Assembly (NCBI GenBank): GCA_051294905.1
Contig: CM119371.1
Location: 39,434,001 to 39,498,000 of the forward strand
Origin: Botryllus schlosseri
Taxonomy: Eukaryota
Direction of reading: 5' to 3'
Length of the DNA stretch: 64,000 nucleotides
Made by a program: the position numbers and the translations under genes. The notes under the pieces were generated by a model that saw nothing but the letters and a program-made list of their open reading frames with translations, was not told the DNA's origin and ran no database searches. Numbering within the stretch: position 1 is the first letter of the stretch; each line of letters starts with the position of its first letter. This document shows, one piece after another, positions 5,238-44,218 of the stretch.

Positions 5238-6345
5238 AATCCAAGACGAACATGCAGCGTTGTTGCAAAAAAATACAATAATGTTTGCTATCCTCCCCAC
5301 TATTGACCTATTATACCTCAAATGATGACACCTGTCTGCTTGCTTCGATTACTGCCGCACGGGGGTAAGTTGCAAATTTTGCACAAATCTGAAGCGAGGG
5401 GACATTGCAATGAGGTGCTTTGATAACTACATGTTAACTCTCTGGTGACGTTGCGATTCTAGCTCAAGTACACGTAAGAATGTATCTATATGTGAATTGC
5501 AAAATCAGCGTAAGAGACAGCCAGTCACACACACCAGTCAATGGTCACACTAACGCTTATTCGGTTTGTACGACGAGTCCATGCCTACATAAACCCAAAA
5601 CACGTATGGGTAGGAATACTGGTGTCGACCTCAGCCTGACTCGAATTCACAACCTATTCATTTTGCAGCGGTGGCGTTGTGAATATATTCAGCGAAAATT
5701 TGAAATTATGCTTAAAATAACTGTAGTCTAAAGAAAACGATCAATAATCTAAATTATAATCCGTCGGTCTCGATGTGATGTTCATTTGTAAAAATATAAT
5801 TTCTGTCATGCCGACGACCAATATCCACGCGAACTCGGTTTACCAGACGTATCGCGTGCCGACAAGGGTTAATCCAGTTTTGTACGATGCGTTGATTGAT
5901 CGCAGACATACTGGCGCCTGTGAGACATTGCGGGTTTTCAAAACCTCATTGCCTTCCTAATTACCACCAAGAAATGAAGCGTCGTCGATGTTCAAGTTTA
6001 TAAATTCATATGGCAATCAGAACAGTCCCCAGCATTCTCTTATTAGGCGTGCTGGCACTTAGTTACCGCATGGTTTTAAGTATATTACAAGTAGGCAAAG
6101 CCTACTCGCGGACACCGAATAGGTAAAATAGCTTCGTCAGAGATCACCTCCGTGTGTCTATCGAACATCGGTGCTGTCAAATCTTCCGGTAGTTTACAGT
6201 GTGCTGCTAGCCGAAAAAGGTCGATAATGCTTGGGTGCCGCTGACTATTTTACATTTACAGAGGGTGCCGCGAGGTTGAAGATTTTGGCAACCACTGGTC
6301 TATGTAAATCTTGAATGCCATTATTGCAATCATGATTTAAAAATC

Positions 6346-8023: not shown

Positions 8024-10033
8024 CTACGCGTTTTGGACAATTTTACCATGGTGCGTTCTAGTATATCTTTCCCCACATCCGTAACATAAAAACTTGTCAC
8101 GCATAAACGATATTCGTTCAGGATACGGTAAATTATCAAAATCCACACAATCTGGGATATGGTGGTCATTTTTTCCACAAAACAGGCAATTGTATTCGCC
8201 TGACATAACATTAGTTCCAAATGAAACACATGGCCTATCACGGCCATACTTTTGAGCAGATTCCGTGATATTACTATTTCGGTTTTCGTTCAACATTCTG
8301 AATTCTGGCATATTTCGACGTTCAGACTGATCTCTCACAAATGACACAAAGTACTCAAATGGAGGGTAGCAATTTACATCATTTATCTGTGCCTTGTACT
8401 TTGACACTTTACAACGCCACTTATCAATAAGTGACGGAGGTAACTTCTTCACAACGTAAACATGATTTGACGAGTAATCAAGAGTGCCTAACTCTGGCAC
8501 AAACACTTTGTACACAAAAACTTGCTCCAAGAAATCAGAGAATTCTTGCAGCCCAAGTCTATCATGTTCCTTTATATGACGCCAACCTTTCAATTTATCT
8601 ATAAAGGCCTGCCCAACAACGACAGGGCTTCCATATCTACTTCGCAAGTCACTTATTGCTTTTCGATAGGATTCCTCAGAACCACGCAGAAAATAACATT
8701 TCACAACTTTCAGCGGGCCCGGACCAAGATGTTGTTTCAACAAATTCATCTTTTCATGAACACAATACACTCTATCTTCAACTAACGCTTTAAACGAATT
8801 TTCCCATTCCATATAATTAGTTTCATCGCCATCAAAAACCCAAACTTTTATATCAGGTATTCGCGTCAACGGTTTCATGTTGTATTGACGATCAATTGGT
8901 ATATCGATAGATTGATTAACGGGCATCTTTACAAACGTGTTTCGGCCGGTTTCTTCCGGTTCAACATGTCGGACATTGTTCATTTGCACAGGAGTTTTAT
9001 CAATAACTGGGCCGTAGGATACGGGTTCACTAGATTTGACATTACATTGCCTTACTTCAGGACACACATGTGAGTTACTACTAATAAAGTTTTGTACCTT
9101 GGCTTCCGAATTCAAGACGGGAACCCAACTTCGTATTTCTGTAAAACTTGCTTCATCACGAACGACATCTTCGTCGTCATCAAGGTCAAAGGGGTTTTCT
9201 TCCCTTTCAATTTGCTTGCAAACTTTGATCATGGCTAGTTTTTCAGCTAGCTCAGTCTCCAGAGACAATTGCTTCAACTTTGCTTCGTTTTCCATTTTCA
9301 ATCGTTCCATTTCTGCTTTGCATTTAGTTTCCTTTTCGAAAGCCTCTCTTTTTGCTTCCGTTTCTCGCTTCGTAAATTCAAGTCTGGTTTTCAGAGCAGC
9401 CGCTTCTTTTTGATGATCATAAAATTGCTGTTTGTGACTGGTGCGACTGTTTCGCGTATGACGACTCGATCTCGAGCCGGCTCCAGATCTCGCGCGGCTA
9501 CAGACAGATCCATTTTCAGATGGAAGCTTCATAAAATCTATAACGTTTTGTCTGACTTTCTCAATTTTCATTTCAACCAACCTCAGACTTTTGGTGAAGT
9601 CCTTTGTTTCCGTATTTTCGGCGTACTTGGAAGTAATTTCTCCGGTAATTTTCCGCAATTCGTCTCTGTAGTAAGAAACACCTTTCATAGCTTCCCTTAC
9701 TTCTTCTTTATTTGCTGATTGCGTTATAATATCCACAACCACTTCGATGCGACTTTTAACATCTCTTTCTGTTTCACGGAACTGACGTTCAAGTTCAACC
9801 AATCTCTGATCGAATCCATGGAAAGTGCCGTCACTACTGGTTGGAACATCAGAACCCACTGACTTGCTCTTCCCGGGGATCTGGTCCACAATTTCTTTCT
9901 TGACACTTCCACGTCCGTCTTCAACACTCTCTGAACTTGGTGGAACTGGGCAGCCAGCACTCTCTGACGTTGCCACAGTTTTACTTTGTACGGCTGAGCA
10001 GTCAGCTATCTCTGACGTTGCTGCAGCTTCCAT
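8024..10033 (-). CDS. BEL/Pao Gag-like protein (coiled coil, DUF1759-like capsid region, zinc knuckles); frameshifted near the C-terminus
   Basis: FDGDETNYMEWENSF..EKMNLLKQHL..AISDLRSRYG; knuckles CLFCGKNDHHIPDC and LCYGC..HH; the continuation CPKRVVCVKCEKLHLTSLH lies in a shifted frame at ~8039-7983. Confidence 0.88.
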   Translation of the reverse strand: MEAAATSEIADCSAVQSKTVATSESAGCPVPPSSESVEDGRGSVKKEIVDQIPGKSKSVGSDVPTSSDGTFHGFDQRLVELERQFRETERDVKSRIEVVVDIITQSANKEEVREAMKGVSYYRDELRKITGEITSKYAENTETKDFTKSLRLVEMKIEKVRQNVIDFMKLPSENGSVCSRARSGAGSRSSRHTRNSRTSHKQQFYDHQKEAAALKTRLEFTKRETEAKREAFEKETKCKAEMERLKMENEAKLKQLSLETELAEKLAMIKVCKQIEREENPFDLDDDEDVVRDEASFTEIRSWVPVLNSEAKVQNFISSNSHVCPEVRQCNVKSSEPVSYGPVIDKTPVQMNNVRHVEPEETGRNTFVKMPVNQSIDIPIDRQYNMKPLTRIPDIKVWVFDGDETNYMEWENSFKALVEDRVYCVHEKMNLLKQHLGPGPLKVVKCYFLRGSEESYRKAISDLRSRYGSPVVVGQAFIDKLKGWRHIKEHDRLGLQEFSDFLEQVFVYKVFVPELGTLDYSSNHVYVVKKLPPSLIDKWRCKVSKYKAQINDVNCYPPFEYFVSFVRDQSERRNMPEFRMLNENRNSNITESAQKYGRDRPCVSFGTNVMSGEYNCLFCGKNDHHIPDCVDFDNLPYPERISFMRDKFLCYGCGERYTRTHHGKIVQNA

Positions 10034-10083
10034 TACTTTCAACTTCTCCGACTTTCAACTTTGTAACTGGTAAAGTTTCTGAC

Positions 10084-13729: not shown

Positions 13730-14400
13730 CAATACTTTTAGTTTAGTTCTACTTGCGGATTTCGAAAACTTAGTAGTTTTAGTTGTAGGTCTAGTCGTGA
13801 ATTTGTAAAAATGAGTAGTTTTACTTCTAGTTCCAGTTGCAGATTCTGAAATGTCATTCGTTTTAGTTCCAGTACATATAAATATAATAGTTGCAGAACA
13901 ACTAGGATACACATCCCTTCATTTGGCTGAAATCGTGATACGGGTGTTTTGTTGTATGATAATTTTGCAGCCATTGCTAAAGAGTTATCAACGCTTACAG
14001 TGGCGTAGCCTGCTGGTGGACCATCTTACATATGTTGGCTGACTATCGCTCGAGTATCAAACTAGACAACCTACATAATTATGGGTTATTAGCGTAAATT
14101 TGGACCCATTTTGAGTAGCTCTAGTTCCAATTGCGGATTTTGAAAATTGAGTAGTTCCATCTCTAGTTATTCTCGCGTTTTAAAAATTAGTTCTAGTTCT
14201 GCATATGGATTATCCAGTAGTTGGTACAAGTCTGAATATGGAGCTACGCAAGAAATGGAGTTACGACTTCATTCAAGTAATTGGAAACAACTCCCGGAAG
14301 GAGTGCACCCTAAATTCGAGCTTGTTTAAGGTTTTTGCGAATTCAGTAGTTCGGAATACAATCCATATCCAAGTAGAACTTTAGTTATGCTTCGAATCTA
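13730..14400. repeat. dispersed repeat family rich in CTAGTTCTAGTTGCGGATTTTGAAAA motifs
   Basis: Also at ~17870-17965 (same strand) and ~31830-31960 and ~32950-33260 (opposite strand); no termini resolved. Confidence 0.6.
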
Positions 14401-15029
14401 ATTTGGAAGAAAATTACTGCTATCATTTTAATTATTACGTAGAATATTTTGGGAACCTGAAAATTTTCTAGTCAGCTTATAGGACGATTTGAGTGCTCGA
14501 ATCCGTATGCAATAACGACGATACTGATTCTAGTGGAGAAGAGAGAGCCGGTATATTTCAGCAAACTGAAATTATGCGCCACTTGACCCAAAAGGTTTGA
14601 GCTGGGCAAGATCGTGGATACATTTCCCTGCATCTAGTGTAGGCCTACCACCTGCAGTATAGCCACAAAGCGCAATGCAATATTTATATGTTCGAAAAGC
14701 AACAAATCAAATTCAATGCGCTGTATCTCAGTATTTTTTTCTCTTATGAGATCTATCTTTCAACTTACCATTTCTTTATACTGCTATGACGTCGTAATGG
14801 TGCGATCCTTGAGCCAAAGCCTAATATTCGATTCGAAATTGAATCACTTGCAAAATACCGTTTTTTTGCGTCGTATTCAAATGGTTTTTGTCTACTTGCT
14901 CATGTAGACATGTTTTTTTTGTACTACTTCCATTTGTCATTGGAGAATATTATTAGTCAAAACCACCTAATTTTAGGACCTTGGTTGTTGTGTAACGTAT
15001 GATTGCATCAATACTAGTCAGGGGTCACG

Positions 15030-15255
15030 TTTACCGGAACACGAACTCTCATATCGATCTCGCATTCTGTAACCTGTCCTTTTTATCATCTTCCTTTACA
15101 TTTAGTGGACATGCCCACTTTTTACATAGCCTTGACCTGGTGTGTGTCCGATTTCAAAGACTAATTGAAGTCGTTTCGACACCTTTCTATCTTTTCATTG
15201 TATCGCAGTCTTGTGGTGTTTTGAAATGATGTAATAGATAATAATAAATTGAAAC
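15030..15255 (+). mobile_element. LINE 3'UTR fragment related to 710-1111
   Basis: Shared block ...TCGACA..TCTTTTCATTGTATCGCA..TTGTGGTGT.TTGAA.TGAT..AATAAA. Confidence 0.6.
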
Positions 15256-15744
15256 TACATAAATGTAATATGCAAACAAACTGAGCAAGCCGCAATGCCA
15301 CAACATCGACCTCTACTTTCGAAAATGCCTTCGTTTCATATTGTCAATAATCTGCTTTTGTGCCGATTCAAAGCAGTAACTCCCGAACAACGATACCGAA
15401 AGTATGTCATTCCTCGACAAAATCTACCATTACAAACAACTTACTCGAAAACTTTTCATGCGTTACATTTTCTTTTCACGTGTCTTTGACATCGTTATAA
15501 CTACTTGTACTCCACTCGGAATCAAGCCGTTACACTTCTTCTCGTGTACCAACGTGACTCCTTTGCATCTTAGGTAGCACTCGAAACTAACACTATTATA
15601 TTTCCTCAGACTTACACCATTGAATAGCAGCGAGATCTGTATTGAACCAAATCAACGATAATGATTTGTGACGATCGAGTTAACATGACAAGACATCACG
15701 CAGCATATCTAGTTGCCGAGTCCGGATCAAAGCAGAATTCACCA

Positions 15745-17560
15745 TTCATATACTTTTACTTCCGTGGACGCCCGAATATTCACCATACGAACTGAGCGAT
15801 CTTTTGGATCTGTCTCCTTCATCATTTTCACTCGGCTACGTTACGTTCCAATCGTCCAAAGCGAGAGTGCACACATGTTGTTTTATAGAGATAAAACCCA
15901 ACTGTTCGTAAATCGACGAGTCGGAAGTGCGGAAAAAAATACATCAAACCTGGCCGCTCTTCGGTGGCAATCTTCGTGGGTTCGTGGAGCACATAACACT
16001 CAGGCTACGATTGATAAGCAATTGGCATTGATCGAGAGCAGGTACCGACTGAATCAATTTAAAATTCTCTCGTATCCCAAACTTCAGTGTTTATGATCAC
16101 TTCTAAACCATTTGACGGAATACACCGCTGACGGCATGGTTGAACTCATCAAATCCATGTACAGGAAACGTCTGGTGCCTCCGGACATCCCAGAAACACC
16201 CGCCGCTTAGGACTAACCGGTCGTCATACGAAAACGTGGCGCGATGTTTTGGTGGAAATACTACTGGTTGTCTTCTATATAGGTATCAGCTCTAACGTTA
16301 TTTCCGTAGGTGTTGTTATCAGAGCCAGTGTTGCGGTCATAGATAATTGCTTGAGTTGAAATACTCGTGGAGACTATTTTGTCTTGCACGGTCATGTGAA
16401 ATTCGACGTCATCAATACTGTCAAAAGTTACCTTTATGTCAAACGTATTGTCCATATAGCTAAACGAACACAGTTGTGGGAGCACCAGTTGGACGACAGG
16501 GTCAGCATCACATCTCCGGCGTTCGAGGGTTCGATGCTAATAATGGCCGAATCAAAAACTCTTGTCTTGATGCGATCTTCAAAGTTTGACGCTTTGGGGA
16601 AGTTAAAATTTCCAGAACTGTCTCCGAGAATCAGCTCGCAATCGTCGTCGTGACTGAACGTAATAGACGAGAAGCGCTAATTTCGATCCCTGGTAGGCCG
16701 GATCTCCCCAGCAGATCTGAATCGGCTGTAAATCATTCTCAATTTGTGCCTCATACCGCCCCATTCAGGATAAACCCCTTGTCGATCACAGTGTCGTTTT
16801 CGGATGTTGATCGATGCTTCAATTTTGTTCATAAGCTTGGAGCAACGGTGGCGAATGAATAGAGAAAACGGGGGCATAGGTGCTACCGGATTTCGACTTT
16901 TGGAGTGTTTGTGATTGCTGCATTCCTCGATGAGAGAATTGAGAGTAACACACCGAGCGATATCATTTTCTGCAATAAACCTTTTGCTAGTTTCTAATTT
17001 TTTCACATATTGATCCATGAATAAAAAGTTATCATCTGCATCTGGAAAAGCCTCAACCCAAAGTGTCCTGCGAGGATCCGACAAAACAGACAAATATAAA
17101 TAATCAGCAGAAAGTCCTCATAGTCTCCGAGGCAACATTACTTGTCATCACATTCTTCCAGTAAGCGTCGAGTGTAATTGCTCTTCTCGTTACGATTCTT
17201 TCCAAGAGTAACTTCACTTCGTTGCAAAACTTGACGTGTAGCTGTTTGCTGTCTTTGCGAATGGGCTTCAGGATAGCTTCATGTATTTTGCTGGTCAACA
17301 CGTGAAGCTTTGGTGAGATCTCACGCAGTGGACGGTATTCGGCAAATCTTATGAGCGCTTTACAAGTAGAGTAACGGGTTTCGTCTGCCGTACGTACCGG
17401 CTTCGTGACACCTAACAAAGATAGCAGGGTGTTCAAGCCATCTGCCTGCCGAATGAGTTTCTTTAACTTCACGTTTCTTCTTGTTACATCATGGTGCAGC
17501 ATGCACTTTGAAAGGTTCACGTCCGGATGCATAATAGTGTTGATAACAAGATACGATATC
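15745..17560 (-). pseudogene. DCAF1: DCAF1/VprBP-like pseudogene fragment (end of ARM region, LisH, WD40), apparently intronless
   Basis: Manual translation across frameshifts: GLNTLLSLLGVTKPVRTADETRYSTCKAL..HVKFC; TLNSLIEE..RNPVAPMPPFSLF..H.C; IYSRFR; DSAIISIEPS; AIIYDRNTG; ATFSYDDRLVLSGGCFWDVR..FDEFNHAVSGVF/SNGLEVIINTEVWD/SVPALDQC; FRT. These match the remembered vertebrate DCAF1 sequence in order. In-frame stops (16677, 16261) and several frameshifts. Confidence 0.88.
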
Positions 17561-17564
17561 TCAC

Positions 17565-17658
17565 ATATCCTCCACAGTCATATCTTTCAAAATCTGGCAG
17601 TAGTCCACATTCCGGACAGCTTGATCGTCCCATACTTTGGAAGACAAGAGAATAGCAC
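17565..17658 (-). pseudogene. CCNY: CCNY exon 8
   Basis: ttcag|GT GCT ATT CTC.. = [33 protein letters not shown]|gtgaga. Confidence 0.95.
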
Positions 17659-18460
17659 CTGAACACAAAATCGACCAAATTACCAGCTATAAATAGTCAA
17701 TCAAATGGACCAAGTTATCATAATTAAATAAGGGAAAGCAAAAATCGTGATATAGCGAATATATAACGAAACACATTCTCATTAATAGCATATTGCCACA
17801 GTGTAAAGACCTGGCTCGCCTGCACAAACCACCAATGTCGTTTCGTTGAAGGTTAACTAAATACTGTTTTTTGAGTGGTTCTAGTTCTAGTTCCGTGTTT
17901 TGAAAGAGATTTCTTCTAGGTCTTGTTCTTTAAAAAAAGGAATTAGTTGCGGAACAACTAGAAAGCCAGTAGGGCGATTTTTTTCCACACGTTGAAATTA
18001 TGTCAAAATTGTAGCGTTAGGTCACAATATGAACTTTCTTTCTCTATTCTTGACAAGATACTTAGTAAGGCATACACTTTCTACCCAATAATGTAGGAAA
18101 TTATATTTTGTTGTGCTACAAAATTTTCTCATTGTTCCTACCATAATGCGTAATCTAACTACTGGAATTCTTCACATGGGTGGATTTTGTTAAATTGATA
18201 TTTTTTGATGTAAAAATTTGTCAGTTTTTGAGGCAAAAAAAGTTTTTTTTTTCAGGCCGAACCACTTCGTTAGGACAGACATTTCCAACCAGAAATGAAG
18301 TTATAAGTAGTACAATTCTAACATTAGGTGGGAAAACGCCTAATTTGCATACGTTAGGTAAAATTTAAGATTTTTCAAGGTAAAAAATGTCAAATTCTGA
18401 TTTTTTAGGTGAAAAAAATCGCCTACTAATGACTATCATGCAGTTAACGAGTGCACACAC

Positions 18461-18533
18461 CTAGCACGATACGCTTCCAATTCCCAGGTCATAAAATAAT
18501 CTCCGGGTATGCTAATAACCTTTTTAAACAAAC
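18461..18533 (-). pseudogene. CCNY: CCNY exon 7, copy B
   Basis: [24 protein letters not shown]. Confidence 0.9.
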
Positions 18534-20259
18534 CTGAAAAGAGGAAGAACCAAGTCACTAATGGCACCAATAATCTATCAAAGGATCATTGGCAGCGTAC
18601 CAAGAAGCAATCGATACAATAAAGAACTGATTTGAAGTTTGAATATAAAAACTGTGTATGGGAGTGGGATATAGGGGCATATATATTGATGTATATAATT
18701 TTTCCGCTGATGAAAATATGCTATGTTTAAAAAATGGATGGGGACTGAGGAATATTAATAAGACAATATGAGAGAAAATCATTTTAATATACTGGCGTTT
18801 GTCTCATTCTTGATGAAGTAGCGGTGTGCTTATTAGGACTGTTCAAAAATAACATTTTTTTCAAATGTTACGGCCCACTTAATAAAACTGTTAGATTGCC
18901 TGAAAAAAGAACACGCTGCAAACCAATTTTGGCACAATTCCAACCAATAGAAGCATTGCAATATAAGAAAAAGTATTATATTTATTTAATAAAGATCAAT
19001 ATAAAAATATTACTGGCAACCCCATGAAATTGTTAGGTTGCATGAAGAAAAAATGCACAACAAGTTTGGCTTAATTCCAACCAGTAAAAGTTATTAGAGT
19101 GCAAAATTTTCGGATTTGTAAAAATAGTATTTATAGTGGAATAGTCTTCAATTATTTACTATGGATATTTCAGATTATTCATGGCTTATAATAGTATTTA
19201 CAGTGAACAGCTAGTCTGTGTTGCTCGTAAATACTATCACAAGCAATCAATAATTGAGATTTCATGAAGGAATAGATTGCACTTCCTAAATCCTATTTTA
19301 TATTAACCATACTGCTTCAAAGTACATTTTGCAATAATTTTTGTTTTGTGGAAACGGAACACCACATTGATTTTCAAGTCCCTCCCCCCCTGGCTTTATA
19401 TCATCAGTAACATTTTCCATCGAGTTTAGAGCAAAAAAGTTGATTTTTTCCAATTCCGTGACTGGACTCGAGTCACGATTTTCTGATGACTCGACTAGAG
19501 TCATTTCTCAAAATACGGAAGTGACTCAACTTGAGTCAATTTGTGTGTTGACTCGGCTTGCAATCGAGTCATTGCTCATGACTTGAACCAAGTCCGATGA
19601 CTTGAGACTCACACCGTCACCTCAAGACCGACATTTCATTTTGAGGAATAGTAAAATAACCACACTATTGGGATTTCGTCTATCGGTACTGGTACTTGAA
19701 AATGCGACCAGAAAATGCTAAAAGTGAGGAAAATTAGTATATTATAAATGCGAATCATTCAATATCACCAAACAGAGTTATAAAAGTGGGTTTAACAAGA
19801 CTTTAACAAGAAACTGAGCAATCAACACAATGACTTGGACTCGACGCTCTGCTCTCTGACTTGGACTCAAACTTGACTCGGTGGTGAATTGATAATGACT
19901 CAAATCGAGTCAAAACTATAAAAGTGAGATTGACATGCGACTCGGAGCCTTGTGACTTGGTTAAAACCCAGATAGCCAGTAAAATTTAAGAAATATTTAG
20001 GGCTGTTTTTCCACAGCCAAAATTGGATCTCAATTTCCATCAAGCAGCCAGTAAAATCAATAAAATTTCAACAGCCTTATTGCAGCATGTCCTATAAATA
20101 AATAATACATGAAATCAGATAAAAATATACGGTATTTCTTCTACTGTTACCGGAGAAATGATTTTAATCACTTCAAGCGTTTCATTGTTTCAGGAATTCA
20201 ATTTTATCGGTAGCCTAATTGATGACAAGACGTTGATGCACAAAGTTCTTTCAAAATCC

Positions 20260-20777
20260 CAGGGTTGTAACCAAGTCACAAGTTTCCGAGTAACAAGTCA
20301 ATCCCACTTTTATAGCTTTGACTCGAGTCATTTTCAATTCACCACCGAGTCAAGTCCGACTCCAAGTCAGCTAGCCGAGGGTCGAGTCCGAGTCATGGTA
20401 TTATGACGAGTCTGACTCCAAGTCATTGTGTTGAACGCTCAATTTCCAGTTAAAGTCTTGTTAAACCCACTGTTGTAACTGTTTTGGCAACATCGAATGG
20501 TTCGCATCTATAATATACTAATTTTCCTCACTTTTAGCAGTTTTTGGTCGTATTTTAAAGTACCGGTACCAGTACCAACAGACAAGATATGAATGGTGTG
20601 ATTATTTAACTTTTCTTCGATATTACAATGAAATGTCGGTTATACTTGTTTGAGTCTCGAGTCATATCCTTGGTTCGAGTCATGCGTAATGCCTCGAGTC
20701 CAAGTCGAGTCAATACACAAATTGTTCGAGTCAAGTCGAGTCATCGGAAAATCGTGACTCGAGTCATTACAACCCTG
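20260..20777. mobile_element. hAT MITE, CAGGGTTGTAA family (GACTCGAGTC-rich)
   Basis: CAGGGTTGTAA...TTACAACCCTG; TSD CAAAATCC/CCAAATCC. Further copies at ~19440-19970, ~22598-22980 and ~40215-41322. Confidence 0.85.
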
Positions 20778-20916
20778 CCAAATCCCATCTAGTCACCGAC
20801 GATCACCCCCCTGACGAGTGTCAGCCGAAAATAGTCGGATTCATATAAATAAGAATACACTATTCAATAGTACCGCATGTCGAAGTTCTTTCGGCTGCCT
20901 GCAAGCAAATCCTTAC

Positions 20917-21036
20917 CAAAGTAACTATTGCACATTCCGCAGTCAATTACGCCGCGCTAAATAACGTCCTAATGAAGCGATAAATATGCCGATGCTCCGA
21001 CTCTCGCTTGTCGTAATCTGACAGCACATGATCGCG
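20917..21036 (-). pseudogene. CCNY: CCNY exon 6, copy B
   Basis: [39 protein letters not shown]|gtaagg. Confidence 0.92.
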
Positions 21037-21199
21037 CTGAAATGAAGATCGAAAAAACGCAGTTTGTAAGTCTTGTTATCGTATTATTGAATCAAGCATT
21101 GGCAGTTTACTCGCAAGCATTTTCGGTCATCAAAACACAGCGCAGACTTGGGCAACAAATTTTCAGATTTTCTATATCAGATAGAATTATTGCTGTACA

Positions 21200-21780
21200 G
21201 TACACTGTACAGCCTTAATCCAAATTGGACTCGAATTAGAATTATTGCCACACGGTTTATTTCAAATTAGAATAATCGCTGCACAAGTTTTTTCCAAATC
21301 TGACAAGAATTAGAATTGTAGCCACACAGTTTATTCCAAATTTGATTGAAACTAAGAATAATAGTTGCATGCACAGTTTTTTTCATAATTAAACTAGAAT
21401 TAGAATTATAGCCACACAGTTTAGTCCAAATTAGATTAGAATTATAGCAAGAATTTTTTCAACTCAGATTAGAATTAGGATTATAACTATTTTTTTTCCA
21501 AATTACGTTGGAATTAAAATTGTGGCTACGGTTTATTCCTAATTAGATTAAAATTAGAATAATAGCTATACAGTTCATTTTCCAAGTTAGATTAGAACTA
21601 GAATAATAGCTAACATTTTTTTTTCAAATTACATCACAATGAAAATTGTGGCTAAAGTTTATTCCAAATTAGATTAAAATTAGAATAATAGCTATACAGT
21701 TTTTATCTAAATTACACTAGAATTACAATTATCGCTAGTTTTTCCTTCAAATTAGGTTAGGATTAAAATTAGAGCCTCAG
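21200..21780. repeat. degenerate minisatellite (AAATTAGA.TAGAATTAGAATTATAGC..ACAG)
   Basis: Imperfect ~40-45 bp units; paralogous array at ~26650-27530. Confidence 0.7.
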
Positions 21781-22166
21781 TTTTCTCCACATTCGAATTC
21801 CTGACACAAAAACTTGTAAATTGAATGGAGTTTGTTGATATCAAATCGGAGGCACGAGAATTGCAAATGTCTGTGTACAGAAAACTCGGCTCGCTTTGCA
21901 GTGTACAGTTCTCGTGTATAGCAGTTTCAGGTAAACCAGAAATTAGGCCAATATCATAATTACAATTGGATCGTAGAAACATTTTACAAATTTAACTAGA
22001 ATTAGATTGATGGCATCTGGCTTTAGAATTAACTAATAGTTCAAGCTTGCTACTAAGGATCTTGATATATGTAAAAATCTATTTCGGGTTTACAGATTAC
22101 TGGCGTCGGACATAACACAAGTCCTCAAACAATGCTACGAACTATTACAAATCGAAAACATCTCAC

Positions 22167-22256
22167 ATTCAAAGGATGCTTTTTATCATCGAAAATTCCT
22201 TAGTCTTCTTTCCACTGCTCCATTTTTCGATGAGGCTATAAACGGCTAATGCCACG
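22167..22256 (-). pseudogene. CCNY: CCNY exon 5, copy B (1-nt deletion)
   Basis: VALAVYSLIEKWSSGKKTKEF/DDKKHPLN; 90 nt vs 91 nt in copy A. Confidence 0.85.
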
Positions 22257-24255
22257 CTGTATAGACAAAAAATACGGGTGGCAACATTATTGGGTAACGG
22301 AATTAGTTTCAACTTGTGCCTGATATTGCAAATTGATCATGATTGACATGAATCAGAATTGACTGTTAATTCTAATTTATGGAGTCGTATAGCGAGAGAT
22401 GAGATTTGAGAGAACTGAATCATCAGCTCCATGCCACCGAGAGTTAATTTATAAGCAATCATAGTTTCAACACTATTTTCCACTGGGAAAGGCTGTAACC
22501 CTAGATTGCTCGTATCACAGCGTACGAAATTGTAATTACTATCGAATGTAAACATGGAATTGCCGAATCTGCTGCTGGAAACTGGAGGATTTCCGGCAGG
22601 GTTGTGACCAAGTCACAAGGTTCCGGGTCACAAGTCCGTTTCAATAATATAGTTTCGAGTCAAGTCGAGTCATTTTCAATTCCAAACCGAGCATAAGTCA
22701 GTGAGTAGAGGCTCGAGTTCGAGTCATACTGTTCCCTCCTGCTCCCGCCCAATCACTGTGTTCACTGTTTAGTTTTTAGTTCAATCCTGTTCGACCCACT
22801 TTTTTCAACTATGTGGGAGTAACATATAATGGCTCGCATTCATAATATCGTGATTTTCCTCAGTCCTAACAGATTCTGGCCCTATTTTCCGAGTATCGGG
22901 ACTGATAGACGAAATGTCATGTGAGGACTTAAATTCTTCGAAGTCACAATGAAATGTCATACGACTTAGTTCGAGTCATGCACAATGCACAATACAAAAA
23001 TTGATCCACCCTGAACAAGGTTCCGAGTCACAAGTCCATTTCAGTCGCTGTCCCAAAACAATTCTGATCCAGGACTCTAAGCTGCAATATCACTACTTGC
23101 CATCCCATGTTAGCATTCGATAGTATTACAAAGCCTGGTACTTTAGTGGAAATAACCCATTTGTGAAAAGGTGATAGACCCACAGCATTGTCACAAAGTG
23201 CAATGAAATCGAGGTAGTCTCGAAAAAAATTCAAATATCTTTTAATGAGATAATAGCTAGAACTGGCATTATTATATCTTTGGTAGTCGCATTAAAGTAC
23301 CTGGACATAATTGAACTTTTCATATCATTCATACAGTCATGTTCGAATGCTCAACTCGACGCACTTGATTTCACTCAGCTCTAGTTGTCAGTAAATAGAT
23401 TTAGATTACTGTGCAAGTGCATGCAGACTATGGCTGTTCAAAAAACAATTTTTTTTTCAAATCTCACTGGCTACGTGATAAAATTGTTAGGCTGGTAAAA
23501 ACAACGCTGCACATCAACTTTGGTTCAATTCCAACCGGTAAAAGCGAAATTCCTGCAGTAGAAAGTTTTGAATTTATTATCGAAAAATCTTCTGTCAACC
23601 CCACACAATCGTTAGGCTGTCAGTAAAGATGATGCACACCAAATTTGGCTCAATTCCAACCAGTAGATGCAAAGTTATTGGGGTAGAAAAATTTGGATGT
23701 GGTTAAAATAGTATTTACGGTGACTAACTCTTTAATTATTTACTATAAAATCATGGAAGTAGAAATTTTTCTACCGCAATAACTTCGCTTCTACTGGTTG
23801 GAACTTCGCTAAATTTGGTGTGCATCATCTCTACTGACAGCCTAACAATTTCGTGGGGTAGGCAGAAAAAATTTGAAATTTTATTTTTATATGATAGGCC
23901 TAAATTCAAAACTTTCTACGGCAAAAATCTCGCTTCTACTGGTTGGGATTGTGCCGAATGTGTTGCGCAACGTTGTTTTAACCGACCTAACAATTTTATC
24001 ACATAGCCAGTGAAATAGGAAGAAAAAGTTTTTTTTTTAACATCTCTAATGAGCACTGTGCAGTTACACAGACATACAATTGGGACAAGCAGGCATAAGC
24101 TGTTTAAGAACTCAAAAACTATTGTGTTACTGTGTTAATTTGCCTACATTAAGTCAAAATTACGATTTTAAAGGTAACAAATGTCAAAATTCTGATTTTT
24201 AGGTAAAAAAAATTGCCGTGCTAATGACAATCATGCAATTAACGAGCGCACCTAC

Positions 24256-24328
24256 CTAGTACGATACGCTTCCAGTTCCCAGGACATGAAATAATCTCTG
24301 CGTATGTTAATAACCTTTCCAAATAAAC
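24256..24328 (-). pseudogene. CCNY: CCNY exon 7, copy A
   Basis: [25 protein letters not shown]; 73 nt, open. Confidence 0.92.
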
Positions 24329-25122
24329 CTGAAATCAGAAGCAACCAAGTTACTAATGGCACCAATAATCCGTTCAATGATCATTGATAGCGTACGAAGA
24401 AGCAATCAATACAATCAAGAAGTGATTTGAAGTTCAAAATATTTTTTTTAAAAATTTATCGGATTAGGATATCGACGCATGTATATTGATGTACCGGTAT
24501 ATAGTTGTTCAGCCGATGACAATATTTACCGGTTAAATGGATGTGGACTGAGGAATATATAATTACAACAATATCGAAGAAAATCATTTTAATATACTGG
24601 CGTGTCACTCATTCTTCATGAAGTAGCGGTGTGCTCATTAGGACTATTCAAAAAAAACATTTTTTAAAAATTTACGGCTTTCCTGATAAAATTGTGTGAT
24701 TGCCTGGAAAGAAAAACGCTACGAGCCAATTTTGACACAATTCCAACCAATAGAAGCATTGCTATATAAGAAAAAATACGGTATTGGATATATTTAATAA
24801 AAATCAATATAAAAATGTTGCTGTCCACCCCATGAAATTTGAAGGTTGTATGAAGAAACGATGCTCAAAAAATTTGGCCCAATTCCAAACAGTAGAAGCA
24901 AATTTATTTGAGTACAACATTTTTGGATTTGTAAAAAGTAGTATTTACAGTGGAAAACTTTTCAATTGTTTACTACGGTATGGATCTACCCCCTTGTAAA
25001 TACTATGTTTTGAAATCCAAAATTTTGACCATCAAAAACTTCGCTCCTACTGGTTGGAGTGTAGCCAAATTTGTTGTGTTTCGCTTTTTTTAGACAAACT
25101 GACAATTTTCTGACGTAGCCAG

Positions 25123-25692
25123 CAGGGTTGTAATGAATCGAGTCATGATTTTCTGATGACGAGAATTGACTCAATTCATTTACTCTAAATACGGAAATGA
25201 CTCAACTCGAGTCAATTTGTGTATTGACTCGACTTGGAATCGAGTCAATGCGCATGACTTAACCAAGTCATAAGAATCGAGACTCAGATGGCCAAGAGTG
25301 ACATTTCATTTTAATATTGAAGAATACCGTACTGCATTAAAAGTAAACACAGTATTGGGATTTCCTCTGTTGGTACTGGTGGTAGCCTTCTTGAAAATGT
25401 GACCGGAAAATGCTAAAAGTGAGGAAATTGGTATATTATAATTGCGAACCATTTGATATCACCAAACAGAGTTATAAAAAGTGGGTTTACCAAGACTTTA
25501 ACATAAAACTGAGCAGTCAACACAATGACTTGGACACGAGACAAAATACCATGACTCGGACTCGACCCTCTGCTCGCTGACTTGGACTCGAACTTGACTC
25601 GGTGGTGAATTGAAAAAGACTCAACTCGAGCCAAAACTATAAAAGTGAGATTGACTTGTGACTCGAAGCCTTGTGACTTGGTTACAACCCTG
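25123..25692. mobile_element. hAT MITE, CAGGGTTGTAA family
   Basis: Terminal inverted repeats; degenerate TSD GTAGCCAG/GTAGTCGG; shared with duplication unit B. Confidence 0.8.
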
Positions 25693-26111
25693 GTAGTCGG
25701 TAACATTTGAAAAAACTTAGGGTTGTTTTTCCACAGCTTTCTTCTTATATAGCAATGCTTTCATGGGTTGAAATAGAGCCAAAATTGGACCTAAATTTTT
25801 ATTAAGCAGCCAGTAAGATTTTAAAAAATTTGAACAGCGTTATAGCAGCATGTCTTAAAAATCAATAATATATGAAATCAAGTAAAAATGTACGGCCTTA
25901 CTCCTACTTTTACCGGAGAAACGATTTTAATCACTTTTAAGTGTTTCACGAATGCAATTTTACCGGTAATCGATGACAAAACGAATCAACTTGACAACGT
26001 GTTCTGTCATGGGGATCGGAAAGTAAGGTAGAGCAAACAAAGCAGTCTCCCAGGAATTACAACTATTAGATCTGCTATCGTATGACCATTGATCAGCGGG
26101 CTGATAGAAAT

Positions 26112-26370
26112 TTGAATACTATATTCATATTGGAATAAAGCCCAATATTTTTTTGGCTGACACTCGCCAGGGTTAATCGTTACGAACTAGTAGAGATTTC
26201 AAAAGAAGTTTGTAGTTTATATCAACAATCGTGATGTCATAGTTAGCGATACCGGTACAATCGTTGATACACAATGCTCTTTCCAATTCTCTACTAGTTG
26301 CTGACGATTACCCCTGACGATTGTCAGCCAAAAACGTCCGGGTTCGTATTAATATGAATATACTATTCAC
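26112..26370. mobile_element. palindromic MITE (..TATTCATATT..GGCTGACACTCG.CAGGG..CTAGTAGAGA family)
   Basis: Long imperfect TIRs; related copies at ~125-220, ~20790-20870, ~38270-38810 and ~42385-42535. Confidence 0.65.
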
Positions 26371-26387
26371 GAAAAGTAAATCCTTAC

Positions 26388-26507
26388 CAAAGTAATTATT
26401 GCACATTACGCAGTCAATAGCACCGCTCTAAATAACGCCCTGATGAAGCGATACATATGCCGATGCTCCGGCTCTCACTTGTCGTAATCTGACGGCACCT
26501 GATCGCG
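26388..26507 (-). pseudogene. CCNY: CCNY exon 6, copy A
   Basis: RDQVPSDYDK*EPEHRHMYRFIRALFRAVLLTA*CAIITL; 120 nt, two stops. Confidence 0.9.
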
Positions 26508-26695
26508 CTGAAATGGAGATCGGAAAAAAACACGTATTAATAGATCGAACCTTGGCTGGTTACTCGCAAACATTGTCGATCATCAAAACACAGCGCACAC
26601 TTGGGCCACAAATATTCAGATTTTGTAACTTAAATAAAATTATTCCTGTACAGTGTTTATCCAAATTAGACTCGAATTAGAATTATGACCACACA

Positions 26696-26865
26696 CAGGC
26701 GCGTATCCAGGGAGGGGTTTCGGGGGTCGTCAACACAAGGAGATTCTGTAATCGCCATTTACGCATGTACATAACCCTAATCAATTGACGCTATATTAGT
26801 AAATTTGAAACACCTCCCTTTCATTTAAAACCCATCTCCTTATTTTTAAGCTGGCTAAGCGCCTG
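26696..26865. mobile_element. small hAT MITE
   Basis: CAGGCGCGTATCCAG...CTGGCTAAGCGCCTG; degenerate TSD ACCACACA/GCGACACA; absent from duplication unit B. Confidence 0.7.
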
Positions 26866-27946
26866 GCGACACAGTTTATTGCAGATTAGATTAAAAGCGA
26901 ATTAAAATTATAGCTACAGTTCGTTCCAAATTAGCATAAAAATACAATAATAGCTACACCTACACAGGGTTTTTACCAAACTAGACTGGAATTAGAATTA
27001 CAGCTACTGTTCCAGGAAATTACACTAGAATTATAGCAAACAGATTTATTACAAATTTGACTAGATTTAGGATCATTAGTTTTTTCTTTGAATTAGGTTA
27101 GGATTAAAATTACACCTACGCTACAGTTTATTCCAAATTAGATTACAATTACAACAATAGCCACACAGTTTTTTTTTTAATTAGACTAGAATTGGGATTA
27201 TAGCAACACAGTTTTCTTCCAAATTGGATTTAAGTAGAATTATATATACTAGATATTTTCCAAATTACATTAGAGTTAAAGTTGTAGCTACGATTTACTC
27301 CAAGTTGAATTAGAATTAGATTTACGGCCAACATTTTTTTTCCGAATTGGACTAGAATTAGGATTACAACTATTTTTTTCAAATTACTTTGGAATAAATT
27401 GTGGCTAAACCTTTTTCCAAATCAGATTAAAATTAGAATATCAGCTACAGTTTTTTTTTCAAATTAGACTAGAATTAGAATTATGACAAGTTCTTTCATT
27501 GAATTAAGTTAGGCTTAAAATTTTAGCTACAGTTTTTTCCAAATTCGAATTACTGACTTTGCTAAAACTTGTAAATTGAATGGAGTTTGTTGATATCAAA
27601 TTAGAGTGCTTTCTCATAAGTACAGGAATTGAAAATGTCAGTGCACAGAAAACTTGGCTCGCTTTGCAGTGTATAGTTCTCGTGTATAGCAATTTCAGGT
27701 AATCCAGAAATTCGGCCAATATCATAATTACAATTAGATCGTAGAAACATTTTACAAATTAAACTAGAATTAGATTGATGGCATCTGGCTTTAGAATTAA
27801 CTACTTGTCCAAGTTTGCTACTAACGAACTTGATATAATGTGTAAAAATTTATATCGGGTTTGCGGATTGCATGTGCCGTACATAGCACAACAAGTCTTT
27901 AAACAATCTGCCTACTATCAACTATTAAAAATCGAAAATATCTCAC

Positions 27947-28037
27947 TGTCATAGGATGCCTTTTTTCATCAATAATTTCCATAGTCTTCTTTTCCCTGTC
28001 CCATTTTTCGAAAAGGTGATACACGGCTAACGCGACG
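27947..28037 (-). pseudogene. CCNY: CCNY exon 5, copy A
   Basis: C-VALAVYHLFEKWDREKKTMEIIDEKRHPMT|gtgaga; 91 nt, open. Confidence 0.85.
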
Positions 28038-28914
28038 CTGTATGGACAGGAAATACGGGTGGCAACATTATTGGGTAACGGAATCCGTTTCAACTTGTCC
28101 CTGATATTGCAAATTGATTATGATTGACATGAAGAATTGAGTAGTAATTGTAATTATCGAAGTCGTATAGCGAGAGATGAGATTTGAGAGAACTGAATTA
28201 TCGAGTCATAGTGTTTTGACTCGAGCGCGAATCCACCTTTTTCAACTATGACCGAGTGATATAGAATAGTTCGCACTCATAATTTCGTAATCTTCTTCAG
28301 TCCTAACAGTTTCTGGTCTTATTTTCCGAGTATCAGGACTGATAGACGAAATGGCAATCATGTAAGGTAATTCTTCGAAGTTACAATGAAATGTCTGTCT
28401 CATCTGTCCTAGTCTTGAGTCATATGACTTGGTTCGTGTCATATGGAGTAGGCATTGACTCAAGTCGAGTAATCAAAAAATCGTGATTGCCCTGATTTCT
28501 GGCAATCCAAAAGCTAGCCTATCGTTCAGAGTGCAGAATTTGTCGAGTCTTGTCTTGATCGGAAGCTACTGTCGCACTAATTCCGAAAAAATAAATCAAA
28601 ATATGGATTCCGGATTCCATCCATTCACTGATTAAATTGTCAGGTTACCCTGAAAATTGCTGCACACAAATGTTGGCTCAATTCCAACCAATAGAAGCGA
28701 GATTATTGCAGTAGAGAATTTTGAATTAATATTAATATGAAAATGTACAGTTATATTTCAAATTTTTTCTGTCTACCCTATAAACATGTTAGGCTATCAG
28801 TAGAGATGATGCAAACCAGATTTGGCTTAATTTCAACCACTAGAAGCGAAGTTATTGCTGTAGAAAAATTTGGATTTGAATAAAATAGTATTTACGGTGA
28901 CTAACTCTTTAAAT

Positions 28915-30730
28915 CAGTGATTCCCAAACGCGGCCCCCAGCTGGCCTTCTTGCGACCCCAAAAAAATATTGAGAAATCGTGTTATGACATGACAAAACAT
29001 AAAATTTATATTTATAAAACACTCTTGCTTGGCTTGGAGTCTGAAGTTTATCATTGGGATCACAGGAAAGTAATGAGTAGACTGCTATCGTTTCGTCACT
29101 GCTGTTTCGATGCAATGTGTCATAACTAGTGCAAGTTTTTGCTGCAGTTACATCCGCGGAAAGTTGCATTTAGTTATTTATTTTTGACAAAAGTTGCGAA
29201 AGTTGCACTAAAAGACCACATTTTGCTCGGTTGACTAAAAAAAGGTCAATTTACCGGCTCAGCTCCCGAAATGCCCGTACTACGGTGCTGATTTACGGTG
29301 TTTCAGTCGAATTTGGCCGTGTATTTCACCAAAACAGAAAATACTTCCATGAAAAGTCGAAAAAGTTGCAAAATGTTGCATAGAGTAGCATGAAAAAAAT
29401 GGACAAAAGTTACACTATAAGATTCCTTCAAACAGCATTCTACATATCATACGAGTATTTATGAAGCTTCCGGAATCTGTAAAAAAAGTTGCAAAAACTT
29501 GCCCTAGTCATAACTTTCCAGTTGATCGAGCAGTAGCTATAAATATAGATATAGAGAGGGCCATAACTGCGGCAGGCCAAACCCCTATGGGAGGCGGACG
29601 AGGTCAAACGGGGCTCAAAATTATTTCGTGAATTAGCATAAATTATAGAATATTTTTGGAAATTTGATGCATCTCTTTCAATTTTTGCTCTAGACGTGAT
29701 CTCATGCTGGCAAATATCTGGATTTCTGAGTACTCATCTCCAAGAAAAATGTGTAAGATTTATAGAAATGGGCTCGCGCCACGACGCACCAATACATACT
29801 CAAGTTTTAGGCCATGTAGCATGCGACTCCAAGAAGTGTGTCAGAACGATCGGCAGCGAGGAAACCTTGGCCAAACAGGACTGCTCTTATGCTGACCAAA
29901 AACTTCGTTATACATACAAAATACTCTCTTGGCTATCTGAACCACACGAGACAAATACCATCCCACAGGGAAAAATTATATTCCAGTGAAGAAATACCAA
30001 TTTGAAATCGTGAATGTCTCTTAGTTTAGAAGCCTACGTACGGGCGATTCTATAATTTTGGGATATAGCAGACAGGTCACGAAATAACATGTTACGGAAT
30101 CATACTAATGGGCCCTACAGTTTCCAAGACACCTCACTCAGCTCTACCGGTAAATCTGATTGCGTGAGCAGTGAGGACAATAAATGGATAGTAATATATA
30201 GCCTATGCAATTCCCGATCGTATTGACCGATTTTATCAAGAATTATCAAAAATTTTTACGCTTTGCGCATGCTCGCTTAACAGTACGCTGATTTCGTGGC
30301 AAAAGCGAACTAGGTGTTACCTGATACGGGTAGGTTTATCACCTATGGAAGCCCAAGACCCAAGTTTATTATTTTTGGGAGGGGCGCAGACGAAGTGCTG
30401 TTTCGTTCCTGCCAACGGGTATACGCACGAAGATGATTAATTATTATGGAGAGGCCCTACCTTTTCAAACACACCTCCCTCGCCTCTAACTGATTACGTG
30501 AGCAGAGAGAGGATAAAAATTGATGGCAATATATATGCAATAAATGCCTGAAATGCAGAAAATTTTCACGCTTCGCGCGTCCACGCGATTGATTGCCATT
30601 GACGTCATAAGCGATTGATCGGAACGATGCCAATTTCCATATTTTGATGACTATTTTGGGTCCGTTTCATTGTCATGGACTCTGAAATTCTAAATTTGGC
30701 CCTGATACCGAAAAAGTTTGGGAATGATGG
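28915..30730. mobile_element. degenerate non-autonomous hAT element
   Basis: CAGTGATTCCCAAAC...GTTTGGGAATGATGG termini; TSD not preserved; present only in duplication unit A. Confidence 0.5.
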
Positions 30731-30845
30731 AATTGATAAATTTTCCTACTGCAATAACATCGCTTCTACTGGTTATAATGGAACCAAATTTGATTTGCAG
30801 CGTTGTTTTAGCCAACATCAACATTTTATCACATAGCCTGTGCAA

Positions 30846-31430
30846 TAGGGCTGTTCAAAAATACGGTAGCTTTTTTTCCTGAATCTTGATGGTTACGTGA
30901 TTAAATCGTTAGGTTGCCTTAAAATACGACACACACCAAATTTTAATTCATTCCAACCAATAATCGCTGATTTCGTACAGTTGCAGAGATGCAAAAAAAA
31001 TTTTTGTCAGATTTTTCTGTCAACCCCATGAAATTGTTGTGCTGTCTTCAAAGACGATGCATAACAAATTTGACTCAATTCCAACCCGTAGAAGCGGAGT
31101 TATTTCAGTTTTTCTTTGCTAATTCTTAGATTATCCACTGATCTAAGATAATCCCAGAATTATCGAAGAAAAACTCCAATAGCTCCGCTTCTATGGGTTG
31201 GAATTGAGTCAAATTTGTTTTCCATCGTCTTTGAAGACAGCGCAACAATTTCATGGGGTTGACAAAAAAATCTGACAAAATTTTTTTTTGCATCTTTGGG
31301 TAAATTCAAAATCAGCGATTATTGGTTGGAATGAATTAAAATTTGGTGTGCGTTGTTTTTTAAGGCAACCTAACGATTTAATCACGTAACCAGCAAGATT
31401 CAGGAAAAAAAGTTTTTTTGAACAGCCCTA
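30846..31430. mobile_element. foldback MITE with ~260-bp TIRs (TAGGGCTGTTCAAAAA family)
   Basis: TAGGGCTG...CAGCCCTA; perfect 8-bp TSD CTGTGCAA (30838-30845, 31431-31438); inserted in an older copy of the same family. Confidence 0.9.
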
Positions 31431-31636
31431 CTGTGCAATTTGAAAGAAAAAATTGTTTTTGAACACCTCTACTGTGTGTACACGTCGCTGTGCAGTTCCA
31501 CAGACATAGAATCGGTACAAGCAGGCAAAAGCTGTTCGAGGACTCACAAAGAATTCTGCGTTACTCCACCACCTACGTGATTTCTCACTTTCACTGGGTG
31601 AGGGCCAAATATCAAGATCTATACCCAGTTACCCAC

Positions 31637-31734
31637 CACTTGATTGTTGCATTCATGTTCGGTTGGCTCACCGTGCTATCATCGATATATATGGTCAAGC
31701 ATCAACTATATCTTTTGTGTACTTTGTTTGATAA
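31637..31734 (-). pseudogene. CCNY: CCNY exon 4
   Basis: LSNKVHKRYS*CLTIYIDDSTVSQPNMNATIK-TG|gtgggt. Confidence 0.9.
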
Positions 31735-42772: not shown

Positions 42773-44218
42773 CACTACAAAAAAAAATTAGACAAATTTG
42801 GTCTCAAATTTAAGAAATGAGGATGATTTGGTCTCATTTTCAGCAATTTCAGTCTCACTGATGGTCTCATTTTACCCACTCACCATAAATGCTATTTTCG
42901 ACTCAGACAACCATATATATATTGATCTGAATAGCACATGTGAGTAGCCTATATGGAATCTCTGTCCATTTTTTGAAATAAATCCTGCGTGATGAGAGCT
43001 TTTCTATATAGAATAATTAAGGAATTAAACAGAAAATCCGGCACTTCTTCGTTATTCCCCACACATCCAGAAGTGATCACCATGAAACCAATAAATGATT
43101 CCCATGAACATGTGAAATTTTATAGACGTCAAAATGAATTGTTTTTCGCGTTGGGGTGGGATAGACGGATATTAGGGTTGAGGAGAGGGGAGATATTAGG
43201 GTTGGGGGAGAGGGGGATGTTAGGGTTAGGAGGGTTAGGGTTAGGTTAGGGTTATGATTAGGGTTAGGGGAGGTGGGATATTAGGGTTAGGGGAGGTGGA
43301 ATATTAGGGTTAGGGGAGGTGGGATATTAGGGTTGGGGGAGGTGGGATATTGGGGTTAGGTTAGGGTTAGGGGAGGTGGGATATTAGGGTTAGGGGACGT
43401 GAATATTAGGGTTGAGGGAGAGGGTGATGTTAGGGGAGGCGGGATTTAGGGTTGGAGAGAGGGGGATGTTAGGGTTGGGGAGAGGGGTGATATTAGGGTT
43501 GGAGAAGAGGGTTAGGGACATGATATCCCACCTCCCCTAACCCTAATCATAACCCTAACCTAACCCTAATATCCCACCTCCCCTAACCCTAATATTCCAC
43601 CTCCCCTAACCCTAATATCCCACCTCCCCTAACCCTAACATCCCCCTCTCCCCCAACCCTAATATCTCCCCTCTCCTCAACCCTAATATCCCCCTCACGT
43701 AACCCTAATATCCCCCTCTCCCCCAACCCTAATATCTCCCCTCTCCTCAACCCTAATATCCGTCTATCCCACCCCAACGCGAAAAACAATTCATTTTGAC
43801 GTTTATAAATTTTTCTGTTTATGTTCATGGGGAAACATTTATTGGTGTCATGGGGATCATTTTTTCGATGTGTGGGGAATAACGAAGAAGTGCCGAAAAT
43901 CCTGCGTGACGTTGCCACCAATTCCAACCAGGGTGAGTAGTAAGTGGCATGTACCTTGATAACTATATCTAGTGAATACCTTGTAAACTTAGTACAGGAT
44001 CATCTCAACACTGCAATTTCTGGTCTCTCTCATCCTGCCCCTCCTCCGCTCAGACCCCTAACACTGAAAAGGATGCCCCCAAGGCACTGCTACTATTTTC
44101 GATCAATTTCTGGCTTACTTTTGAGACATAAAGTACTTGGTAAGACTAATTGGTCTTTAAGACTTTTTTTTTGTAAAAAATCGATTTGAGACCAAATTTG
44201 TCTGATTTTTTTGTAGTG
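42773..44218. mobile_element. CACTA/EnSpm MITE (same family as 40672-41216)
   Basis: CACTACAAAAAAAAATTAGACAAATTTGGTCTCAAAT...ATTTGAGACCAAATTTGTCTGATTTTTTTGTAGTG; flanked by TA/TA. Confidence 0.8.
43040..43894. mobile_element. palindromic MITE with inward-facing telomere-like arrays (Merlin-like termini)
   Basis: GGCACTTCTTCGTTATTCCC TIRs, 8-bp TSD GAAAATCC (43032-43039, 43895-43902); TTAGGG-containing ~21-bp units to ~43517, then CCCTAA units from ~43525. Confidence 0.85.

Follow-up and report, generated by a model that had tools for sequence, protein, structure and literature searches.

Most animals keep one or two conserved copies of DCAF1. Unprocessed pseudogene fragments in segmental-duplication clusters are partial copies with flanks, show microhomology fusions, are amplified after death and decay neutrally. 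DCAF1 (VprBP; Mahjong in Drosophila; human protein in PDB 7v7b, 7okq and 6zx9) is a CRL4 substrate receptor that is described as essential and as a target which Vpr and Vpx of lentiviruses hijack (PMC8591539, PMC11360348), and for which roles in fly cell competition (PMC11763709) and in oocytes (PMC6821201) are reported. In the human protein the LisH dimerisation motif is assigned to residues 846-878, and the acidic C-terminal tail is reported to bind Merlin and p53 (PMC8591539); the helix-loop-helix of the H-box, which precedes the WD40 domain, is assigned to residues 1050-1079 (PMC6821201).

The DCAF1-like piece described here lies in a window of 64,000 nucleotides (G000:C1:39434001-39498000, G000 being the assembly searched). 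Compared with DCAF1/VprBP the window copy is half-length and frameshifted. It resembles the unprocessed pseudogene fragments mentioned above and differs from them in its single-exon donor, so that the fragment mimics a processed pseudogene. In itself the window copy is an ordinary duplicated pseudogene fragment; the interest rests with its family of origin, which consists of fast-evolving single-exon DCAF1 genes that lack the tail and whose function is presumed from sequence. The features of the locus are as follows.

14177..15801, minus strand: 3' flank that the window copy has in common with the intact paralog on C12, comprising remnant codons of the tail, the 3' end and ~1.3 kb of further flank
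15802..17519, minus strand: dead 3' half of a DCAF1 paralog (PDB matches, alignment to C12, motifs)
17517..17519, minus strand: junction of the cyclin Y intron and the DCAF1 piece, with a 3-base microhomology (TGA), common to four of the seven dead copies
17520..17564, minus strand: the 45 bases at the start of a cyclin Y intron, with its GT donor at 17564; the intact cyclin Y gene at C1:39.23 Mb has a matching intron
17564..17659, minus strand: cyclin Y pseudo-exon (GAILL...EDM) that agrees with the exon of the real gene in 88 of 96 bases
18459..31716, minus strand: remainder of the cyclin Y 5' part, dead and duplicated internally, with six pseudo-exons, four of them with stops
18459-18533, 20914-21045, 24254-24328, 26385-26516, 27947-28069 and 31639-31716, minus strand: these six cyclin Y pseudo-exons

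The DCAF1 homology of the window copy is real. Two ORFs of the window match human DCAF1 in PDB (E 1.4e-10 and E 3.7e-11), and Styela clava DCAF1 aligns with positions 15700-17600 in four collinear segments that cover residues 692-1317 (best E 1.8e-55, 114 bits), as against a top score of 22.3 bits in a control with 30 shuffles. The initial annotation, which had proposed such an alignment as a check and had described about 1.8 kb, split over short ORFs, as collinear with the C-terminal half of DCAF1, is borne out by these matches. Relative to the intact paralog on C12 the window copy spans approximately codons 605-1213, that is, the end of the ARM repeats, a degenerate LisH, the H-box and WD40, with an identity of 77% at the DNA level and 66% at the protein level. 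The 1731 aligned columns run without a break along this single-exon paralog, in line with the observation that the copy is free of introns, and the four motifs noted as kept were all located on the minus strand (PPFSLF at 16874, SRFR at 16727, GLEVIINTE at 16109 and VPALDQC at 16045). The interval first given, 15745..17560, is correct for DCAF1 up to 17519; the bases from 17520 to 17564 are instead a remnant of the cyclin Y intron. A Pfam scan returned no DCAF1 family for the ORFs of the window or for the five intact paralogs, using a library that also missed the Pfam accessions precomputed for DCAF1 relatives.

Relative to the reading frame of its closest intact paralog, the window copy carries 11 frameshifting indels, one in-frame 21-base deletion and three in-frame stops (the overhang beyond the reference end being left out of the count), which agrees with its earlier description as dead. 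With the 5' half missing, and with these frameshifts and stops, no open frame runs through ARM, LisH, H-box and WD40, and the window copy gives rise to no DCAF1 protein. Searched at the DNA level with this region, the genome yielded 20 matches. Seven of them are long half-copies in a broken state, of which six cluster at C1 39.45-40.70 Mb and the seventh lies at C1 26.78 Mb; a match on C14 was ruled out as the parent gene and is another decayed fragment. In the tree the seven dead copies form one clade (100% bootstrap), which is joined by C12 against the other four paralogs (96%). Lesions compared over the seven copies include none common to all, so that the fused ancestor may have stayed open for a while. 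The DCAF1 piece in the window has accumulated ~0.09 substitutions per site since the cluster root (branches summed). DCAF1 starts earlier than in the window form, at codon ~539, in three of the seven, and in two of these three it is preceded by an exon of an unrelated multi-copy gene. This gene, whose exon stands before DCAF1 in the two dead copies, was observed at L069-L074 (G000:C1 0.27-3.7 Mb, 26.7 Mb and 39.3-40.5 Mb; 26 matches), and one of its frames, scanned with Pfam, gave no match.

The cyclin Y copy in the window is partial and internally duplicated, with stops in four of seven pseudo-exons; the intact cyclin Y gene is located at C1:39.23 Mb. The cyclin Y exon expected after the junction is missing from the window and is present only at the real gene. 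The junction is likely a deletion breakpoint, by which the window form would have arisen from the longer form that starts at codon ~539, and no capturing element was found at the junction itself. The duplicated unit spans more than 15 kb and includes cyclin Y introns. Six cyclin Y pseudo-exons compared with the real gene are 91.5% identical at the DNA level, which matches the ~0.09 substitutions per site of the DCAF1 piece, so that both parts have decayed for about equal time. The initial annotation had contrasted a much greater divergence of the DCAF1 piece with that of the adjacent cyclin Y exons; the strong divergence stands, but not a fast evolution of the window copy itself, since the cyclin Y exons are dead too and have decayed to a comparable extent. 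A cyclin Y-DCAF1 fusion protein was ruled out, as the junction falls inside the intron and an in-frame stop follows the exon. Two consecutive cyclin Y exons fused without an intron, and broken, were observed at L023:5054-5259 (G000:C3:34.385 Mb) and are likely a true processed cyclin Y fragment.

A search of the genome for intact paralogs, as suggested earlier, recovered five full-length DCAF1 loci, each a single exon with an open frame of 3.6-3.8 kb.

C12: full-length single-frame DCAF1 locus, 1213 aa
C15: full-length single-frame DCAF1 locus, 1196 aa
C1:17.78 Mb: full-length single-frame DCAF1 locus, 1255 aa
C11: full-length single-frame DCAF1 locus, 1249 aa
C3: full-length single-frame DCAF1 locus, 1275 aa

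The pairwise protein identity of the five is 51-66%, compared with 50% between fish and amphioxus DCAF1 in the same alignment; the paralogs are thus roughly as divergent from one another as the fish protein is from that of amphioxus. The intact paralogs are collinear with DCAF1 over the whole protein (E 1.7e-166), all five aligning in the N-terminal ARM region (in C12, residues 6-757 with human residues 9-857), and the motifs WDVR and WDMR are present in each of them. A model of the C-terminal part of C12, the one paralog folded (pLDDT 82.8), has the WD40 domain of DCAF1 as its top structural matches (E 4.9e-35). In the H-box region MIYSRFR is kept in all five and the first half is variable; the C12 model has two helices there, the first at pLDDT <50. 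By eye, LisH is recognisable in the alignment of C3 and worn in C12, C15, C1 and C11, and it is the region with the highest dN/dS (0.64). The acidic C-terminal tail is absent from all five, which stop at different positions, several of them with tail remnants behind the stop; 7-17 residues follow the last conserved YEVG-type motif, as compared with 74-107 in eight of the nine comparison proteins measured. In their whole-protein collinearity, the end of the H-box, the WDxR motifs and the WD40 fold predicted for C12 the intact paralogs resemble DCAF1/VprBP, from which they differ in being tail-less and only ~30% identical to fish and amphioxus DCAF1. The kept end of the H-box, the WDxR motifs and the predicted propeller fold suggest that they may be working CRL4 substrate receptors.

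In the assembly the C3 paralog is split near its 3' end by a young LINE with an open RT frame (L021:958-3285, G000:C3:36.546-36.548 Mb); one contig of run X15 joins both C3 sides without the LINE, so the insertion is polymorphic. Located 27 kb upstream of the C12 paralog is a recent fragment of its 5' part (L057:8035-8880, G000:C12:4.259 Mb), with 96% identity over 740 bases. Single-frame genes for a mitochondrial carrier, a BTB-kelch protein and a zinc-finger protein adjoin DCAF1 copies (L016:1014-1976, L031:4193-5953 and L012:647-1543, respectively), and long single-exon coding regions seem to be common in this genome.

The window piece had been read as a retrocopy, or as a paralog captured by an element, that was strongly diverged, intronless and dead. 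These three properties hold; its retro-origin is unlikely. The initial annotation had itself allowed that a parental region in one large exon would mean duplication at the DNA level, and this largely applies, as the nearest relatives are single-exon over this region. With single-exon donors, the missing introns are uninformative on the mode of copying, and more weight falls on the flanks. The window and the C12 paralog share ~1.6 kb of largely low-copy 3' flank beyond the coding part, to position 14177, so that the homology extends ~1.6 kb past the stop and well beyond the AATAAA in the 3' end of C12; no poly(A) run was seen at 15460-15760, the expected mRNA end. The C12 flank is interrupted by ~6 kb containing an LTR retrotransposon, with RT, RNase H and integrase found in the gap, and long matches to positions 14150-15060 occur only at C12, at C1:26.78 Mb and, shorter, at C1:36.44 Mb. 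The sharing with donor loci that is seen in the window unit thus comprises the C12 3' flank and the cyclin Y introns. All five intact paralogs have a pyrimidine tract and CAG ~50 bases upstream of the ATG, at the start of their mutual homology, which would represent an acceptor for splicing or trans-splicing; copies made from mature mRNA would not carry it, and the acceptor-like motif therefore favours a spread of the already single-exon coding region at the DNA level. The window copy is, on this sequence evidence, likely a DNA-level duplicate and not a retrocopy. A 5'-truncated retrocopy of a DCAF1 paralog, driven by a LINE with long read-through at the 3' end and later carried along by segmental duplication, would agree with the lack of introns, with the truncation at codon ~539 in three of the seven copies, with the active, polymorphic LINE in this species, and with the position of the five intact paralogs at five unrelated sites (four contigs plus C1), where they share merely ~60-80 bases upstream and ~300 bases downstream of the coding sequence. 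Given the donors without introns, the flank shared with C12 far beyond its AATAAA and the missing poly(A) run, this origin is considered unlikely.

The history regarded as probable, and held with good confidence, is that of a dead DCAF1 3' half, copied as DNA from a sister of the C12 gene, later joined by a deletion to the intron of the dead cyclin Y duplicate and decaying neutrally since then. The 3' half of a further paralog, sister of C12, would have landed, from codon ~539 and together with at least 1.6 kb of 3' flank, beside a partial cyclin Y duplicate on C1; the direct donor of the dead cluster was not found in the assembly. The resulting unit, whose seven copies form the single clade described above, would then have spread by segmental duplication, and in the ancestor of four of the seven a deletion at the 3-base microhomology would have put DCAF1 codon ~605 within 45 bases of the cyclin Y exon. 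A different beginning, in which the cluster ancestor was a working chimeric gene that carried the exon of the unrelated multi-copy gene in frame with the LisH/H-box/WD40 half of DCAF1 and died later, is suggested by the copy at 40.03 Mb, where an acceptor-like site and ~23 codons of the foreign exon read in frame into DCAF1, by the 26 genome matches of this exon (25 of them on C1), by the lack of a lesion common to all seven copies and by the dN/dS of 0.50 on the stem. An in-frame match is expected by chance in one of three cases, however, the copy at 39.60 Mb is out of frame at the foreign exon, neutrality (0.93 and 0.96) is already reached on the two branches that descend from the cluster root, and the value on the stem is accounted for by the time spent as a full-length paralog; such a chimera is therefore judged very improbable.

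The initial annotation had further assumed that the window copy evolved fast under selection before its death. Among the five intact paralogs (dS 0.43-0.83) the pairwise dN/dS is 0.34-0.56, and a single ratio of 0.55 fits far better than 1 (likelihood ratio 147). In branch models run on 679 codons, dN/dS was 0.59 on the intact branches and 0.50 on the stem that leads to the dead cluster, the latter significantly less than 1 (p=0.005); within the cluster it was 0.84-0.96, statistically indistinguishable from 1 (p=0.08 and 0.96), and no branch class exceeded 1. Relaxed purifying selection thus acted on the intact branches and on the stem (dN/dS 0.50-0.59), and the constrained stem followed by near-neutral branches means that the ancestor of the copy was a constrained paralog and that the copy drifted after its capture; the assumed fast evolution under selection before death is thereby largely contradicted. 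The window copy acquired its divergence before this drift, while its ancestors were still functional paralogs subject to such relaxed purifying selection, and its distance from textbook DCAF1 would have been inherited from the fast-evolving live family. Site models on all 1143 ungapped codons of the five paralogs favour positive selection (M1a/M2a p=3.6e-4; M8a/M8 p=3e-5), but the signal fades once codons within 5 of a gap (882 codons remaining; p=0.064 and p=0.009) or within 10 of a gap (665 codons; p=0.27 and p=0.085) are removed; the implementations of site and branch models were in-house and the site models are based on five sequences. Positive selection among the intact paralogs is accordingly weakly supported. 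That the window copy itself evolved fast under positive selection, for example in conflict with a virus, draws on this same site-model signal, which concerns the live paralogs and not the dead copy, and with a dN/dS of 0.50 on the branch to the dead copies it is extremely unlikely.

The nearest named protein to the paralog family is the DCAF1-like protein of Styela clava (UniRef, P0003), with an identity of 38-40%, which makes a styelid ascidian the likely host. In the tree the family nests in the branch with Styela, with the tail-bearing proteins P0002 and P0199 as sister, and the five paralogs of the assembly form a faster-evolving clade of their own together with the tail-less P0001 and the fragment P0224, so that the family may extend beyond this assembly. 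The Styela protein, P0002 and P0199 have retained the acidic tail and LisH as well as a longer linker, whereas the five paralogs do not keep the tail. A metagenome scan yielded 59 loci, the best segments of which are 31-63% identical to P0002, and a search for shorter proteins found 12, none above 43% identity. The titles and abstract openings of papers on DCAF1/VprBP in ascidians, on DCAF1 duplication or selection and on tunicate retrogenes, a set with few subscription papers, contain no report of a tail-less DCAF1 family.

A sixth, tail-bearing DCAF1 is indicated by sequencing runs with the same species label. In run X15 a contig of ~2x the depth of the others fits C12 in three patches only and continues into an acidic tail (two loose ends were assigned to this contig by matching lengths), and run X1 contains an identical N-terminal piece of a tail-bearing DCAF1; these pieces were found neither in the assembly nor in any of the five paralogs. 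Searches of the assembly with P0003, P0002, two short conserved stretches and two 30-base motifs revealed no intron-bearing or tail-bearing DCAF1 (the four protein searches scored 32 of 36, 33 of 39, 7 of 7 and 16 of 16 candidates). A conserved tail-bearing DCAF1 likely exists in the species and is missing from the assembly; a loss of the canonical gene, also considered, was dropped in view of the tail-bearing copy in the runs. The retrogene replacement described for SYCP1 in amphioxus (PMC5803294) is alike, as far as the account available goes, in that the assembly is dominated by single-exon copies where the gene normally has several exons; it differs in that tail-bearing DCAF1 is still present in runs of this species label, so that replacement is unsupported, and in that a retro-origin is the less favoured one here. 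Raw reads of RNA run X23 (~6% read) gave a depth of 0-2.8 on the C3 coding part, with zero in most bins, and 20 reads on the C12 stretch, none of which is at least 95% alike. Single-cell run X21 had no reads on the C3 coding part, and no RNA run is listed as containing the C3 stretch. Low-depth contigs from runs merely guessed to be RNA match C3, C11, C12, C15 and a dead copy, and may be explained by DNA. The RNA reads on C3 and C12 being very sparse, the putative function of the intact paralogs is deduced from their open frames and dN/dS.

Taken further, and only as a tentative and rather doubtful proposal, the ascidian lineage may have a birth-and-death family of tail-less single-exon DCAF1 receptors beside the tail-bearing DCAF1, in which docking to DDB1 was kept, the Merlin/p53 tail and the control by LisH were shed, and partial positive selection acted for new ubiquitination targets or for decoys against viral or selfish-element hijackers, possibly in the germline or in cell competition; the window copy would be a dead branch of it. 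Five tail-less frames kept across dS 0.43-0.83 would offer natural variants for the roles of tail and LisH and for the change of substrates in a CRL4 receptor. For annotation, an intronless copy is not in itself proof of a retrocopy, and the assembly is likely to be without the conserved DCAF1.

Several other features were observed in the window. A frame of 1014 codons at 2307-5348 (minus strand) has matches to an OTU protease and a MULE transposase, and a DUF1759 gag-like frame of an LTR retrotransposon lies at 8027-10054 (minus strand). A near-perfect palindrome of ~700 bases at 43100-43820 is built from degenerate 23-base repeats that contain TTAGGG, has unique inverted ends, and probably represents a foldback element or a MITE whose units are telomere-like. 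A transposon-like frame of 745 codons at 46731-48965 (plus strand), with matches to a PHD finger and, weakly, to a Ulp1 protease, is flanked by tandem arrays of 191- and 236-base units at 44.8-46.1 kb and 49.5-50.1 kb, and a THAP-like frame is found at 52146-52820 (plus strand). Outside the window, near a gag-like frame, the frame L046:3597-4745 (G000:C1:40.69 Mb) shows a weak match to herpesvirus glycoprotein B (E 0.0012, below the family cut-off) and possibly belongs to a retroelement with an envelope gene.
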